This document shows, in pieces, positions 6,586 to 12,377 of a DNA stretch of 12,453 nt. The position numbers and the translations under genes are program-made. Where the stretch lies: UHGV virus genome UHGV-0283832. One strand, written 5' to 3'. Position 1 is the first letter of the stretch. Every line of letters starts with the position of its first letter. This DNA is from a virus. The notes beneath the pieces were generated by a model. It was given only the letters and a program-made list of their open reading frames with translations, did not search any database and had not been told where the DNA came from.

Positions 6586-6806
6586 TATCTACCTTAGTGG
6601 CCCTCATACCAGTAATGGCGCGGCTTTCAGCGGGGTAGAGTGCTTTTATCCACTATCTACCCCGTGTCTACCTCCCTGTCTGATTCAGGTAAAATCAGGT
6701 AGAGAGGGTAGATAGTGGGTAGACAGTAAAAAAAAGCTATCTACCTAACTTAATGCACTGAATTAAATGTATTTTTCTTTACTCAGGTAGACAGGGTAGA
6801 CAGCAA
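6586..6806. repeat. Iteron-type replication origin (GGTAGACAG family repeats plus AT-rich segment)
   Basis: At least 11 copies of GGTAGA(C/T)AG or its complement CT(G/A)TCTACC in both orientations (for example ~6586, 6597, 6634, 6651, 6665, 6697, 6706, 6717, 6738, 6786, 6795), with tandem GGTAGACAGGGTAGACAG at 6786-6803. AT-rich stretch at ~6727-6780 and a DnaA-box-like TTATCCACT at ~6646-6654. Immediately downstream of the primase gene. Confidence 0.75.
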
Positions 6807-6816
6807 TTACAAAAAA

Positions 6817-8571
6817 TTATAAAAACGCGTCGCACTCGTCTGTTGTTATTGCGTTAGTCTGCGTTACCCCCTTAACTTTCCGCGTAATATATTCATGTCC
6901 GTAAACTTTTGCGGCAGGCTTCATAGCCTTTCCAAAGTCATTTACGTTTAGCGGTTTGCTCCTGCCTGCGTATGCCATAAACGCCAGATAGACGCGGTAA
7001 AGGCTGTTCCTGGTCGTGTACTTCACTGAATCGCCACCGCCCCCCATCATCAGGCCGCGCGCTTCCTCCAGAAAATTCAGGAACTGGCAAAACTCAATAA
7101 CCGGATCCGTCTGTTGCTTTATTGCCAGTGCTTCATCACCGTCACGCTGTTCCAGTAGTAAAGCCCGTGCCTTCTCAGGGGCGGTAAAGTTCGCCAGCAA
7201 TCGGCGGATAATGACAGGGATTTCAGCCGCAATCTTTTCCGGTAGCTCCCTGTCTTTTTCGGCCTCACTGACGATATTGTCGAAACGGAAAATTACGCGA
7301 CGACGTGACACACCTCCGGCCCGTTCGGTGAATATCATCGGATTGTTATTGGTTGCCAGCACCACCGCCCTGATTACCGCCGTAAAACGCTTTTCATATT
7401 TCGGGTTAATTTCCACGGGGTCGCCGCCCGTGATTTTCTTGATGCCCGTTCCTTCGCCTGTATATTTCGGCTGGTCAGCCAGGACGATAAGACGACTCCC
7501 GACAACCTGCGCACGTCCACCAGCATCATCAAGCGATGTCATTTCAGCGCTTACCGTGTTCTGTTTCCCTGCCAGAAGGCTGGCTATGTGCGTGAATGTA
7601 CTTTTACCGCTCCCGCCATCTCCGGTGGCCTCAATAAACATCTGCCAGTCGTACCGGTTCGCCATAATCATGTACAGCGCGGCACATATACGCATCATCT
7701 TGCGCGGGTCTTTTCCGGCTGCGTGCTCAAGCCATTTATGAAAGTTTGGCGCGTTATCGCGGATGTTCTCCCCTGGTGCTGGTGGCGTGTACTCAATGCC
7801 GTTGTGCGTGGTGATCCAGCTCTCCGGCGTGTGCGGGGAAAATTCCCCCGTTTTCAGGTCAAGCGCACCATTGGCGAACGGCAGCAAATCGCCGGACGGC
7901 TCGCCCATTGGTTCGGCAATAACTTTTAACGCTTCCACGGCGTTATTGATTACGCGCTTGCTGAAAGTGGCCCTGTGCTCTGAATAGATCGCCACCATTT
8001 CGCGGCTAAGTTCCATTGTGCTGACCGGACACCATACCCCGCCGCGCCATACGTGAACGATTTCACTTTCAGGATGTACGCAAACGCCATCAAAGCGATC
8101 GGCAAGCAGCTGCGCGCGCTCACTGTCCGCCATCTGCGAAAGTTGCGCCTTTTGCTTTACCGGAAGCTCAATGACCAGACCATCAGAAAGATTCTGGCGC
8201 TCACGGGCCAGATATTCGCGCCAGTTCTCCACCTTCTGACCGTGCATACCCTCAGGATAAAAATTTGCATCCTGTACGCCTGCCGCCGCCAGCTTCTGAC
8301 CAATCGCCTTTATCATTACTGGCGCAAGATATCCGGCCCTGAATATGCGCACGGATTTTCTGCCTTCCGGCACAATTTGCAGCTTATCCAGTTCGGATAA
8401 CTGCTGCTCCCCAAGCCACACAGGAGGCTCATTATCTCCGGCCATACGCGCGTCATGTTCCTGCCATTGTTTTGCGTGTGACCAGGCATCACTACCCGCA
8501 AAAATAATGACTTCTGTTTCTTTGTGTTTTATGCCGCGTGACTGCTGTTTTACGTTCGGTGCCAGTTTCAT
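6817..8571 (-). CDS. Replication initiator: P4-family primase / helicase-type NTPase (pri-rep)
   Basis: 584 aa. Walker A GDGGSGKST (encoded at ~7596-7630) with the surrounding FIEATGDGGSGKSTFTHIASLLAG typical of the phage/plasmid P4-family primase C-terminal NTPase domain. An N-terminal ~300 aa domain precedes it. ATGA overlap with the upstream ORF; followed by the iteron array. Confidence 0.85.
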   Translation of the reverse strand: MKLAPNVKQQSRGIKHKETEVIIFAGSDAWSHAKQWQEHDARMAGDNEPPVWLGEQQLSELDKLQIVPEGRKSVRIFRAGYLAPVMIKAIGQKLAAAGVQDANFYPEGMHGQKVENWREYLARERQNLSDGLVIELPVKQKAQLSQMADSERAQLLADRFDGVCVHPESEIVHVWRGGVWCPVSTMELSREMVAIYSEHRATFSKRVINNAVEALKVIAEPMGEPSGDLLPFANGALDLKTGEFSPHTPESWITTHNGIEYTPPAPGENIRDNAPNFHKWLEHAAGKDPRKMMRICAALYMIMANRYDWQMFIEATGDGGSGKSTFTHIASLLAGKQNTVSAEMTSLDDAGGRAQVVGSRLIVLADQPKYTGEGTGIKKITGGDPVEINPKYEKRFTAVIRAVVLATNNNPMIFTERAGGVSRRRVIFRFDNIVSEAEKDRELPEKIAAEIPVIIRRLLANFTAPEKARALLLEQRDGDEALAIKQQTDPVIEFCQFLNFLEEARGLMMGGGGDSVKYTTRNSLYRVYLAFMAYAGRSKPLNVNDFGKAMKPAAKVYGHEYITRKVKGVTQTNAITTDECDAFL

Positions 8572-8855
8572 TTTTTACCCCCTGCGACCAGCATTTCACG
8601 AATTTTGCGGATATGACTTGCTGCACGTTTCTGATTTACGGCTTTACGATGGCCCACCAGCGTGAAATCACGCCGGAACTGATAAACAGGCATCACGCAG
8701 TCATATTCGTAGCCATCACGGCGGTAAGTGATGCGCCGTTCTGCCACGCCTTTTATCGTTACCGTGCCGCCATAGTTATCCCGGAAAATATCGCCGGGGC
8801 GGATTTCAGGCTGAGAGAAGTCACTGGCAGTAAAGCCAGAATTTTTCTTTTTCAT
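8568..8855 (-). CDS. Hypothetical protein (95 aa), translationally coupled to the primase
   Basis: ATG start with AGGAAA upstream; stop overlaps the primase start (ATGA). No family recognised. Confidence 0.55.
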   Translation of the reverse strand: MKKKNSGFTASDFSQPEIRPGDIFRDNYGGTVTIKGVAERRITYRRDGYEYDCVMPVYQFRRDFTLVGHRKAVNQKRAASHIRKIREMLVAGGKK

Positions 8856-8860
8856 GGTTT

Positions 8861-9061
8861 TTATTTTCCTGTCAGTGATTCAAGTTTTATTCCGGCACGA
8901 ATACAGGCCTCAGAAAAAAAAGCCAGAGAACCAACAACCTCATTATTTCTAAGGCGGCATTGTGATTTCACTTTCCCTTTATCGAGAAATATCAAAACGC
9001 GTCCCGTATAATCTGACGGCACATTAAGAACTACAGGTAAGTGCGCTTCATAATTGTGCAT
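8861..9061 (-). CDS. Hypothetical small protein (66 aa)
   Basis: ATG with GGGGG Shine-Dalgarno about 8 nt upstream. Start lies within the last 14 nt of the upstream 69-aa gene and the stop is 5 nt before the next ATG, consistent with a tightly coupled operon. Could still be spurious. Confidence 0.35.
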   Translation of the reverse strand: MHNYEAHLPVVLNVPSDYTGRVLIFLDKGKVKSQCRLRNNEVVGSLAFFSEACIRAGIKLESLTGK

Positions 9062-9257
9062 GGTGCGCCCCCTGACGAATACGGGCGGCGAATACCATCA
9101 CGCAGCCATCAGGAGATTGCTGACGCGCTTCCTGTTCGCTGGTGGCCTCAATGGTAATCACGCGCGGTTGTGCCGTGCTCAGGGCGATAAAACGCCAGAT
9201 GTATTTATTCAGGTTGTACGAGTCCCGCCCTTGCGGGTGTATGGTATAATTTCTCAT
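9048..9257 (-). CDS. Small protein (69 aa), possibly Icd-like (host cell division inhibitor-like)
   Basis: Internal ATG of the long track ORF 9048-10124, with GAGG Shine-Dalgarno 5 nt upstream. Protein MRNYTIHPQGRDSYNLNKYIWRFIALSTAQPRVITIEATSEQEARQQSPDGCVMVFAARIRQGAHHAQL. The Icd-like call rests on a vague memory of similar small proteins in P4-like islands, so it is weak. Confidence 0.4.
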   Translation of the reverse strand: MRNYTIHPQGRDSYNLNKYIWRFIALSTAQPRVITIEATSEQEARQQSPDGCVMVFAARIRQGAHHAQL

Positions 9258-9346
9258 AGCTGCCTCGATAATCTTGCTATCGTTGGTGGTTAGAAGCCCC
9301 GTTACTGCTCCTACAGTGCGGGGTTTCGTCGTTTCTGCACCTTGCA

Positions 9347-9440
9347 TTAACAAGGTGTAAGTAACTTTATTTATAGGTGGCTTACATGTCAATGCTTTTA
9401 TGTAAGACTTTTTATGTGTATATTGTCTTACACTTTCATT
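9347..9440. promoter_or_regulatory. Divergent promoter/operator region between the replication operon and the plus-strand cassette
   Basis: Palindrome CACCTTG-cattaa-CAAGGTG at ~9347-9366; inverted repeat CTTACAT ... ATGTAAG at ~9391-9417 and a further CTTACA copy at ~9436; TATATT -10-like element at ~9429-9434. Confidence 0.35.
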
Positions 9441-9453
9441 GAGAGGATTACAG

Positions 9454-9759
9454 ATGGCTACAGGTTCAAAAAACGCAAAATCACAATCACTGACAGCTCG
9501 GATCCCGCATGATGTTATTGAAGGCATGGAATCCGTAAAACTGGACGGTGAAAGCAACGCCGGATTCATAGTAACCGCCATGCGCGGTGAAATCGCCCGC
9601 CGCCAGGCAGAAGGAAGCGGAGAAAACCCCCTGATTTCTTCGCTCGATGCACTGGCGCAGGTGGAAAAACTCGGAATCAAAGCCGCCGAGGAGATCGGGC
9701 AGCTCGTCACTGTCGCACGTGAAGAACTCCAGCGCCGCAAGACCAAAGAACCAGAGTAA
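9454..9759 (+). CDS. Ribbon-helix-helix-like small DNA-binding protein (101 aa)
   Basis: ATG at 9454 with GAGAGGA Shine-Dalgarno 6 nt upstream (the track ORF starts earlier at a TTG). The N-terminal segment SLTARIPHDVIEGMESVK fits the strand-helix pattern of RHH (CopG/Arc/ParD-like) proteins; the C-terminal half is helical and charged. The RHH call is pattern-based only. Confidence 0.55.
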   Translation: MATGSKNAKSQSLTARIPHDVIEGMESVKLDGESNAGFIVTAMRGEIARRQAEGSGENPLISSLDALAQVEKLGIKAAEEIGQLVTVAREELQRRKTKEPE

Positions 9760-9816
9760 TCACCATCAGCGCCGTGGTGTAAGGTATTACGGCGCATTGC
9801 TATGCAGGACAACACA

Positions 9817-9990
9817 ATGACCGATAAAGAATTGACCAAAACATTATCACCGGCACGGAAAAGACGGCGCAGAAAGATAGAGCATGAATCAGAAAGATTC
9901 GCGCCATGTGCTTTTGCCCTTGAGCAATTCCTTAAAGAATACAGGGAAAAGCGCTCATTGCAGGTATGGCAACGAACTGAACCAGACTGA
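9817..9990 (+). CDS. Hypothetical highly basic mini-protein (57 aa)
   Basis: ATG at 9817 with AGGA Shine-Dalgarno 7 nt upstream (the track ORF starts at an earlier ATG at 9802 that lacks one). Protein MTDKELTKTLSPARKRRRRKIEHESERFAPCAFALEQFLKEYREKRSLQVWQRTEPD. Followed by a plus-strand terminator. Confidence 0.45.
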   Translation: MTDKELTKTLSPARKRRRRKIEHESERFAPCAFALEQFLKEYREKRSLQVWQRTEPD

Positions 9991-10085
9991 TTGCATTGCC
10001 CACCAGCCTGATAGCGGCTATCATCCCCGTGCTTATGTTTGGGATCATATACACATAAGGCGCAGCGGGTTAATTGTTCAGAAAG

Positions 10086-10112
10086 GCGGCTCCATATCGG
10101 GGCCGCTTTTTT
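10086..10112 (+). terminator. Rho-independent terminator of the plus-strand cassette
   Basis: GC-rich stem (GCGGC ... GCCGC) followed by TTTTTT about 100 nt after the 57-aa ORF stop. Confidence 0.5.
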
Positions 10113-10138: not shown

Positions 10139-10345
10139 TTAAGCAGCCGTTCCGCGTGCTTCCTGTTCGCGTTCTTTCTGCCAGGCCAACACATCATCCT
10201 CATACCATCCGCGACGGCGTAAACCAACGCGAAAACCCTGCGGAAATTCTCCGGCGTTGATCATGCTTTGCAGCGTGCTGTCTGCCTTGATGTGGATAAT
10301 TTTTTTTACTTCCTGGCGAAAGATAATTTTTCTGATTGCTTCCAT
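10139..10345 (-). CDS. alpA: AlpA-family excisionase / transcriptional regulator
   Basis: 68 aa, ATG with AAGGT Shine-Dalgarno. The C-terminal FPQGFRVGLRRRGWYEDDVLAWQ matches the AlpA/Xis-like winged-helix signature (FP-P-KLG-R--GW---E---W). Confidence 0.8.
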   Translation of the reverse strand: MEAIRKIIFRQEVKKIIHIKADSTLQSMINAGEFPQGFRVGLRRRGWYEDDVLAWQKEREQEARGTAA

Positions 10346-10475: not shown

Positions 10476-10500
10476 ATAAAAAAAGCGGCATTTCTGCCGC
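10476..10500 (-). terminator. Rho-independent terminator after the 83-aa ORF
   Basis: Minus strand: GCGGCA-GAAA-TGCCGC followed by a run of T (plus-strand A-run at ~10475-10484). Confidence 0.6.
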
Positions 10501-10511
10501 TTCCAGGATTG

Positions 10512-10763
10512 TTACCGCCATTTTTTGGGCCTGCCTCCGATCTTCATAGATGCCGGACGTACGACCTTATCAATACTTACCGCCAGATTTCTGGAAGCGC
10601 CACGGGATACCAGAAAATCTACTACCTGTTTTTTTGATGGGGCCGTCGTTCTGTCCTCCGGATCGTAGGTTGACCAAAATTCATGCTGAACCATCAGGGC
10701 CAGTTGCAGCCCGTCGCAATTGCATCTGATATTTTTTTGCATCTTAACGGTTTCATGTTTCAC
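10512..10763 (-). CDS. Hypothetical small protein between int and alpA (83 aa from GTG, or 76 aa from the ATG at 10742)
   Basis: Track start is GTG; an in-frame ATG follows 7 codons later. C-terminus KIGGRPKKWR resembles an AT-hook-like GRP motif. Neither start has a strong Shine-Dalgarno. No family recognised. Confidence 0.45.
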   Translation of the reverse strand: MKHETVKMQKNIRCNCDGLQLALMVQHEFWSTYDPEDRTTAPSKKQVVDFLVSRGASRNLAVSIDKVVRPASMKIGGRPKKWR

Positions 10764-12300: not shown

Positions 12301-12377
12301 TGGTCGGCACGAGAGGATTTGAACCTCCGACCCCCGACACCCCATGACGGTGCGCTACCAGGCTGCGCTACGTGCCG
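12301..12377 (-). tRNA. proL: tRNA-Pro (anticodon GGG)
   Basis: Reverse complement reads CGGCACGTAGCGCAGCCTGGTAGCGCACCGTCATGGGGTGTCGGGGGTCGGAGGTTCAAATCCTCTCGTGCCGACCA: 77 nt, cloverleaf-compatible, anticodon loop T-GGG-GT, encoded CCA. It matches the E. coli proL-type tRNA as I recall it. Confidence 0.9.

Follow-up and report, generated by a model that had tools for sequence, protein, structure and literature searches.

A putative protein repressor operon antisense to a long open frame in an EcCICFT073-type phage-inducible chromosomal island

Introduction

The virus genome UHGV-0283832 was analysed as one stretch of 12,453 nucleotides (here called the window), which holds a phage-inducible chromosomal island (PICI) of the EcCICFT073 type. 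At the core of this island, between alpA and the replication operon, lies a plus-strand cassette of two open reading frames (ORFs): a ylcI-type gene for a 101-amino-acid (aa) protein, and orf57, a gene for a basic 57-aa protein. The question raised by this locus is what a gene pair on the opposite strand does in such a place. An initial annotation had offered a master repressor, a toxin-antitoxin (TA) or anti-helper pair, and cargo as options, backing none of them. The evidence described below points to the first. Judging from sequence comparison, the cassette is probably the immunity (maintenance-repressor) operon of the island, with gene 1 as the repressor.

Gram-negative phage-inducible islands are widespread and move virulence and defence genes between strains. 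In their founding description, the island genes are transcribed in one direction, a global repressor is called "unclear", and the only regulator given is the activator AlpA (PMC6092414). Later surveys report only RNA immunity in this zone (PMC10111431). Elsewhere in the island literature YlcI/YnfO is listed as an accessory gene, and no paper giving it a role was found in a search that was thin on subscription journals, so that earlier work may exist. What would be new here is that a P4/PICI-type regulatory region has a protein as its immunity repressor, encoded antisense within an eta-like frame. If the proposal is true, Gram-negative islands are not without a repressor: it would occur in many heteroimmune types, including those of the two laboratory models, EcCICFT073 and an O157:H7 island at roxA that may be of the EcCIEDL933 type. 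The upkeep of quiescence, the sufficiency of AlpA, and mutual exclusion by immunity type would become testable, and the locus would offer a clear natural example of coding on both strands for which a functional reason is plausible.

Gene 1 and its predicted fold

Two plus-strand ORFs with good Shine-Dalgarno sequences had been proposed for the cassette, and both are confirmed (Table 1). GAGAGGA precedes ylcI (9441–9447) and AGGA precedes orf57 (9806–9809). Both plus frames are under purifying selection, with the lowest ratio of nonsynonymous to synonymous substitution (dN/dS, or omega) of the six frames in each case: 0.15 for ylcI, measured over several genera, and 0.36 for orf57.

The N-terminus of the 101-aa protein was initially described as ribbon-helix-helix (RHH)-like, and this description holds. 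Residues 9–50 match the NCBIfam model NF041551 (YlcI_YnfO_N) with 72.6 bits (cut-off 30, E = 1.9e-20), and the Prokaryotic Genome Annotation Pipeline (PGAP) gives the YlcI/YnfO name to this gene in Nissle and CFT073. Homologues number 255 at E ≤ 0.001; the best 120 of the 255 were listed, with 63–93% identity and from Escherichia, Salmonella, Yersinia, Klebsiella, Serratia, Xenorhabdus, Photorhabdus, and others. The YlcI-type gene is conserved across Enterobacterales. The AlphaFold2 (AF2) model is composed of a strand-like coil, two helices, and a long helix, an arrangement that agrees with the N-terminal strand and two helices of suitable length expected of an RHH domain. Arc (E = 0.006) and Mnt (E = 0.048) align by hhalign without a shift of register along the strand and helix 1. 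The fold of gene 1 is assigned, with moderate to good confidence, as RHH of the Arc/Mnt kind, to which a further helix is added at the C-terminus. Most E. coli islands have a version of just 59 aa, made up of the RHH alone; the type in the window adds the C-terminal helix.

A profile search of the Protein Data Bank (PDB) with the 101-aa protein found no RHH entry. Its weak match to the helix-hairpin-helix of Hef (E = 0.024) was rejected because the AF2 model has one continuous helix at that place.

The comparison of the cassette across related islands took in 11 loci of other genera and, from E. coli, nine more that include CFT073 (individual loci are designated L and a number). The position of the RHH gene is constant throughout: it is divergent from the icd-like/DUF4222/primase genes, and alpA and int lie on its far side. 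The second gene, orf57, is restricted to E. coli and Shigella.

Table 1. Features of the cassette and its surroundings in the window
Feature	Position	Strand	Description
ylcI-type gene	9454..9759	+	101 aa; RHH spans residues ~10-55 and a long C-terminal helix residues 59-98; proposed as immunity repressor
orf57	9817..9990	+	57 aa, basic; RKRRRRK at residues 14-20; conserved helix ERFAPCAFALEQFLKEY; phrog_21027, 1e-15
Hairpin between ylcI and orf57	9769..9795	+	GCGCCGT...ACGGCGC; same in all operator types
Intrinsic terminator of plus-strand operon	10080..10112	+	14-bp stem + TTTTTT; minimum free energy -23.1 kcal/mol, z = -2.9
Leftward promoter, icd/kil-like to primase operon	9364..9392	-	TTGACA 9392-9387, 17 nt, TAAAGT 9369-9364; 10/12 consensus
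Putative operator box 1	9353..9366		GGTGTAAGTAAC; core TGTAAG 9356-9361; over -10/start site of leftward promoter
Putative operator box 2	9376..9388		GGTGGCTTACATG; core CTTACA 9381-9386; spacer beside leftward -35
Putative operator box 2'	9399..9411		TATGTAAGACTTT; core 9401-9406; only in window/L017/L002 type
Putative operator box 3	9422..9434		ATTGTCTTACACT; core 9427-9432; directly after ylcI-promoter -10 (TATATT 9419-9424)
Palindrome CACCTTG-N6-CAAGGTG	9338..9357	-	5' end of leftward transcript; kept in window, L018, L014a, L003, CFT073
Long open frame, 358 codons	9048..10124	-	Antisense to whole cassette; ends as Icd/Kil domain (eta-like)
icd/kil-like gene	9048..9257	-	69 aa; ATG 9257; GAGG Shine-Dalgarno; NF033153 phage_ICD_like, 9.6e-20
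alpA	10139..10345	-	Pfam Phage_AlpA 0.0035 (below threshold); phrog_66; PGAP: helix-turn-helix (HTH) regulator

Divergent promoters and putative operators

The divergent intergenic region (9348–9453) contains two back-to-back promoters, the leftward one close to consensus, and four 13-bp boxes, which have the core CTTACA in alternating orientation and the consensus TG-N-CTTACA-Y. The pattern KNCTTACAY has six matches in the 12.4-kb window, of which four fall within 9355–9433, and 1.14 are expected for the entire window.

When the intergenic regions of the islands are aligned, a constant scaffold can be identified. It is composed of the -35 TTGAC of the leftward promoter, which is invariant across island types, a T-tract, and the -10 of the RHH gene (TATAMT). 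The general form of the 13-bp box is TG-N5-CAC, and it occupies fixed slots at the leftward -10 and start site, in the spacer by the -35, and directly after the rightward -10. Each island has three or four copies within ±1.5 kb, all of them intergenic, with none elsewhere in that range. The candidate repressor gene is divergent from the replication operon and putative operators lie over both promoters, which is the arrangement of an immunity module.

The initial annotation had described this region as a palindromic divergent promoter with the palindromes CACCTTG/CAAGGTG and CTTACAT. The promoters and the non-random CTTACA(T) repeats are retained. The CACCTTG palindrome was rejected as an operator: it is probably not one, because islands of differing operator type retain it, at the 5' end of the leftward transcript, and it is not island-specific. 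At the same site L013 has a different palindrome, TTGAGTG-N5-CACTCAA, which hints that the element is conserved as structure rather than sequence.

Co-variation of protein and boxes

Within an island the copies of the box match. From one island to another the core varies, and it does so in step with residues 10–18 of the protein, in the predicted DNA-reading strand. Eleven strand/box types are seen inside the constant scaffold. Nine of these are listed in Table 2. In the Serratia locus L009, LFTVRVP occurs with TGAAACACA, near the Xenorhabdus/Photorhabdus type, and the Arc-like protein of O157:H7 pairs with GGTAATTACC. Escherichia coli and Enterobacter soli share an identical strand and an identical box. 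The boxes are independent of the AlpA allele, as the alpA products of CFT073, L013, and L020 have adjacent RefSeq identifiers and their boxes differ. Taken from the ORF lists, the AlpA proteins of CFT073 and L020 are 62 aa in length and nearly identical.

Table 2. Residues 10–18 of the YlcI-type protein and the box core found with them
Residues 10–18	Box core	Loci
SLTARIP	CTTACA	Window, L017, Enterobacter soli
KLQARAP	TGGATTCCA	L013
TVAARVP	GTGTTGAACAC	L014a, L018
MTTVRIP	GTGAAATACAC	L014b
KLEARVP	GTGTCAGCCAC	L015
QLNARFP	GTGAATCGCAC	L016, L019
ALKARVP	GTGTGGCCCAC	EcCICFT073
LTTVRVP	GAAACACAC	Xenorhabdus, Photorhabdus
(L/V)KN(I/V)RIP	GTGTGTATTTA	L004, L007

A sliding comparison was made between five short-type loci of four immunity types. 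Mean identity is 86–100% across the icd flank and again from codon ~47 of the RHH gene, and it is 35–67% exactly over the operators and RHH codons 1–46. A hypervariable segment that holds the operators and the DNA-binding part of the gene thus lies between conserved flanks. Such a pattern marks heteroimmune immunity regions, those of lambdoid phages for example, and it is mainly for this reason that gene 1 is called the putative island repressor. Together, the RHH domain, the divergent position, the boxes on both promoters, the co-variation, and the mosaic structure support well the master-repressor option that had been offered for the 101-aa gene.

Locus L014 contains two tandem YlcI modules with different boxes.

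Gene 2 and the alternatives for the cassette

The RKRRRRK stretch reported initially for the 57-aa protein is present. AF2 predicts residues 1–23 to be disordered and residues 29–54 to form a helix. The 36 clusters of the family come without exception from E. coli or Shigella, each of them named hypothetical, and an identical protein is annotated in EcCICFT073. Copies at approximately 76% DNA identity keep the start codon, have in-frame indels, and retain the core E-R-F-A-P-C-x-F-x-L-x-x-x-L-K (alignment A2). A profile search of 1.84 billion representatives gave nine matches, one of which is a spurious repeat protein. The protein has no match in Pfam, NCBIfam, or PADLOC, and PADLOC found no defence family among the six proteins tried. 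The gene is absent beside the RHH gene in 11 of 11 loci from other genera and has been swapped between immunity types. The variable segment stops within ylcI and leaves orf57 out, so that each of the two genes recombines independently of the other. In summary, orf57 is a real gene and an E. coli-restricted add-on to the putative repressor transcript.

The plus-strand unit was also said to have its own terminator, and this is upheld by a strong hairpin and T-run at its end (Table 1). The AT skew turns in the same region, the plus strand being A-rich across 9450–9950. The hairpin between ylcI and orf57 has a predicted energy of -18.9 kcal/mol (z = -1.1), which alone is not significant. It is kept in all E. 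coli islands, where the changes seen weaken it and do not compensate one another. This hairpin, the loop of which is GGTGTAAGG in the window, was considered as a fifth operator and rejected, as it is unchanged in islands with other boxes.

The options other than a repressor fare poorly for the cassette as a whole. Accessory cargo, or an anti-helper or defence pair unrelated to island control, is unlikely. The confinement of orf57 to E. coli and Shigella islands and its exchange between immunity types would suit such a role, and the gene would be co-expressed with the putative repressor in quiescence, like prophage exclusion genes. Its arginine-rich N-terminus also loosely recalls RNA-binding peptides such as N and Nun. 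Against this, ylcI is a core gene, fixed in position across genera, with putative operators on the replication promoter, and PADLOC returned nothing. Taken alone, orf57 may be cargo or an anti-helper gene.

A type II TA module, in which ylcI would encode an autoregulating RHH antitoxin and orf57 a small toxin, is more improbable still. The order of the genes (RHH first, small ORF second), the short gap, and the single terminator are those of such a module, antitoxins are the best structural matches of the RHH domain, and pairs of RHH and orf57-like genes recur in tandem in L014. However, the RHH gene stands alone at the same position in every one of the 11 loci from other genera, and orf57, a predicted disordered basic tail with one helix, has no match among toxin, Pfam, or defence families. 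Of the four boxes, three are on or beside the promoter of the neighbouring operon and not only on that of the cassette. Neither a type II toxin family nor co-inheritance of the two genes was found, a recombination break being located between them.

A long open frame antisense to the cassette

The cassette had been described as a self-contained unit. It is not, as a 358-codon minus-strand frame runs antisense through all of it. This frame begins at an ATG (10124) located 15 nucleotides after the alpA stop, traverses the terminator, orf57, ylcI, and both promoters, and continues in frame with the Icd-like domain to 9048. The initial annotation had omitted this frame, the homology of the neighbouring Icd/Kil gene to P4, and the EcCICFT073-type regulatory region.

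In the 259 codons upstream of the icd region, the long frame has no stops, compared with 20 and 13 in the other two minus frames. When the genes are redrawn synonymously and the non-coding sequence is shuffled, no stops remain in approximately 2 of 10,000 trials (P about 2e-4). When only the two plus genes are reshuffled synonymously, the open antisense frame is not significant (P 0.19–0.25). It is the non-coding segments, and the recurrence of the open frame at other loci, that supply the signal. The frame is open for 285–524 codons in 16 of 18 loci. It is also open in genera that have unrelated sequence downstream of ylcI, with 0 stops compared with 9–24 in the other frames, in segments that were chosen post hoc and include masked bases in L010.

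The N-terminal part of the translation (260 residues) is not conserved between genera and contains no Pfam domain, and its Cys/Ser-rich composition is unlike that of a folded protein. The omega of the long frame is the second lowest (0.29 and 0.52). These intermediate values arise because the frame shares wobble positions with the plus genes, and for the same reason dN/dS cannot fully separate the strands. We think that the minus frame undergoes translation but that selection acts on its openness and not on its sequence.

That the plus ORFs are shadows of a real 358-aa minus-strand protein ending in an Icd-like domain is scarcely credible: PGAP in Nissle hints at it, LR881103 annotates the equivalent frame as a gene and vB_KppS-Ant as a coding sequence, and the openness of the frame, its second-lowest omega, and its probable equation with a published ORF (below) are in keeping with it, but the plus frames have the lowest omega, wobble sharing accounts for the minus-frame value, the long N-terminal part is without conservation or domain, and the plus genes have Shine-Dalgarno sequences, a terminator, a curated family model, and an A-rich coding-strand skew. 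The long frame and the plus genes are not exclusive of one another, and a translated minus frame is compatible with the plus-gene reading.

The YlcI alignment (A1) contains no tyrosine at all, and in the orf57 family (A2) every tyrosine seen follows K, E, or Q, the codons of which end in a purine. This is the pattern that stop avoidance in a shared-wobble antisense frame requires. It is suggestive of a two-strand constraint, although alone it is not significant.

In EcCICFT073 (L024, 8767–10053, plus strand) the long frame has 428 codons and starts 53 nucleotides after alpA. It is probably the "ORF3" of the reporter fusions in PMC6092414, and what these fusions reported may be read-through of the antisense cassette.

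In the O157:H7 island (L020, 2325–2498, plus strand) and in L022 (8691–8894, minus strand), an RHH gene that the records do not annotate is found antisense within a long Icd-ending ORF. The latter is a Klebsiella capsid-forming island deposited as phage vB_KppS-Ant, and its record annotates only the long ORF, of 324 aa. In RefSeq, CFT073 has both cassette genes (a YlcI/YnfO family protein and a hypothetical protein), and Nissle has only gene 1, the antisense stretch being annotated as a broken Icd-like gene.

Comparison with the P4 immunity region

In satellite phage P4, an ORF at 8168–8812 begins where the AlpA homologue ORF88 ends, and its C-terminus matches NF033153 at 7.8e-21. We take this ORF to be eta, with kil nested at its end. 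The window shows the same nesting: the Icd/Kil domain is the final part of a longer ORF, which begins where the AlpA/Vis gene ends and upstream of the proximal promoter. Shared with P4 are the AlpA-family gene, the long ORF from its end, the C-terminal Icd/Kil domain, the primase downstream, and a proximal promoter inside the long ORF. The leftward promoter may be the analogue of P4 PLE. The link of the Icd-like gene to P4 is by the NCBIfam domain model only; a tblastn search of phages with the Icd-like protein missed P4, and BLASTP was insignificant.

In P4 the proximal promoter is controlled by CI (C4-type) RNA. Forti and colleagues reportedly found in 1999 that, when eta is translated, transcripts that start at the upstream, activator-dependent late promoter can pass a Rho-dependent terminator. 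The two regions differ in that the long ORF of the window contains an opposite-strand protein gene with its own putative operators, which P4 does not have, and in that eta of P4 has a Phage_ASH domain, which the long ORFs of the islands lack. An Rfam scan of the window gave no C4, isrK, or c4-a1b1 match at E ≤ 1, and the control scan found C4-type RNA in P4, L013, and L014. With no C4/CI RNA in the window, the locus looks like a P4-type immunity region in which an opposite-strand protein repressor replaces the RNA.

The sister islands at the roxA site, L013 (1686–1890) and L014 (384–569), contain a P4-type C4 RNA and isrK/c4-a1b1 targets directly downstream of the YlcI module. Both also carry a second Icd-like ORF.

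Proposed switch and the points against it

We infer DNA binding, repression, read-through, and the reason for the openness of the frame, and would picture the island as follows. YlcI most likely binds the four boxes, two of which cover the spacer, -10, and start site of the leftward promoter, while the other two bracket the -10 of its own promoter. In the quiescent island it would block the operon of the icd/kil-like gene, DUF4222, and primase, of which the icd/kil-like gene is the proposed first gene, and would throttle its own synthesis. The second gene, orf57, would be co-transcribed with ylcI, rightward, up to the terminator.

AlpA is an activator that switches on ORF3 expression in EcCICFT073; it activates its own promoter, and its overexpression alone induces the island (PMC6092414). 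In the window, a transcript from alpA, the upstream neighbour, would read into the 358-codon frame. By analogy with P4, a helper phage would lead to AlpA, and AlpA to a transcript from the alpA promoter that is translated through the frame and reaches the icd/kil and primase operon, bypassing the repressed promoter. The open frame would let ribosomes escort RNA polymerase to that operon, and head-on transcription would probably silence ylcI. Read-through driven by AlpA fits the published induction by AlpA alone.

The complete version of this scheme is put forward tentatively and could well be wrong. The repressor operon and an induced-state leader may occupy opposite strands of the same ~800 bp in one shared-wobble antisense phase, both under selection. 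Together they may form a full two-strand switch, that is, a protein-based, heteroimmune convergent-transcription toggle that replaces the RNA immunity of P4.

Several results weigh against the repressor proposal or a part of it. Pfam RHH models remain under threshold (PSK_trans_fac, 15.4 bits against a cut-off of 28.3, with 13 of 20 members giving weak matches), Foldseek of the YlcI model against the PDB gives noise only, and the strand is not formed in the monomer model. The box centres are 20–25 bp apart, compared with the ~11 bp usual for Arc/Mnt tetramers. The RHH head and the 5' end of icd physically adjoin the boxes, so that linkage, rather than recognition, could account for part of the co-variation. 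The proposal leaves the role of orf57 unexplained. As AlpA alone induces EcCICFT073, a repressor is not strictly needed for the published data. Finally, the GC skew gives no evident C-rich, G-poor Rho-loading tract on the minus transcript, so that the reason suggested for the openness of the frame is drawn only from the P4 analogy.

Comparison with other known systems

Arc and Mnt, of the immI region of Salmonella phage P22, are small RHH proteins like the YlcI-type protein. The 59-aa island forms are Arc-sized, and the 101-aa form, like Mnt, adds a C-terminal helix. A secondary immunity region controlling a harmful early gene is a further likeness. The differences are the marginal sequence similarity, the spacing of the island boxes, which are not adjacent half-sites, and the target, which is the antirepressor in P22 and would be icd/kil and primase in the island.

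Stl, from the pathogenicity islands (SaPIs) of Staphylococcus aureus, is a helix-turn-helix protein. The fold of Stl/Rpr, the master repressors of phage-inducible islands in Gram-positive bacteria, is unrelated to that of YlcI, and in the window island AlpA and read-through seem to induce; we know of no helper-protein antirepressor for an island of this type. Shared with Stl/Rpr are a gene divergent from the replication operon next to int, and a product that would hold the island silent (PMC6092414).

The immI region of P1 (c4 RNA, icd, ant) also has an Icd-type cell-division inhibitor as the first gene under immunity control, and the NCBIfam model is named after it. The regulator in P1 is a same-strand antisense RNA, whereas an opposite-strand protein repressor is proposed here. 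YlcI (DLP12) and YnfO (Qin) of E. coli K-12 share the N-terminal NCBIfam family and differ in being located in lambdoid prophage remnants.

The island and its setting

The island in the window is integrated at tRNA-Pro (12304–12377). The order of its minus-strand genes is integrase, an 83-aa ORF, alpA, the icd-like gene, a 66-aa ORF, DUF4222, and a P4-family primase, followed by a single-stranded DNA-binding (SSB)-like gene, a lambda-E-like capsid gene, and a small terminase gene. The late genes have products, order, and gene lengths identical to those of EcCICFT073, the model Gram-negative phage-inducible chromosomal island, and the island of the window is of this type. The cassette region shows 99.9% identity to E. 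coli Nissle 1917 and ATCC 25922, and the cassette is matched in 1,458 of 5,426 complete E. coli genomes.

A zone of small ORFs varies between islands. Between its DUF4222 and icd-like genes, Nissle 1917 (L001, 10908–11803) has four small ORFs, with approximately 700 bp of extra sequence. In the window just one ORF, of 66 aa, occupies this zone (8856–9061).

A terminator-like hairpin on the minus strand (10481–10504) directly follows the 83-aa ORF (10512–10763, minus strand) that lies between int and alpA. It suggests that alpA is served by a promoter of its own.

Beyond the island end (346–1284) lie fragments of an autotransporter gene, and the Nissle annotation gives this gene as a frameshifted pseudogene. 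A long, near-perfect hairpin of approximately 98 nucleotides (6641–6738) is located directly 3' of the primase gene and gave spurious Rfam matches to microRNA families. It could be a replication origin or a terminator.

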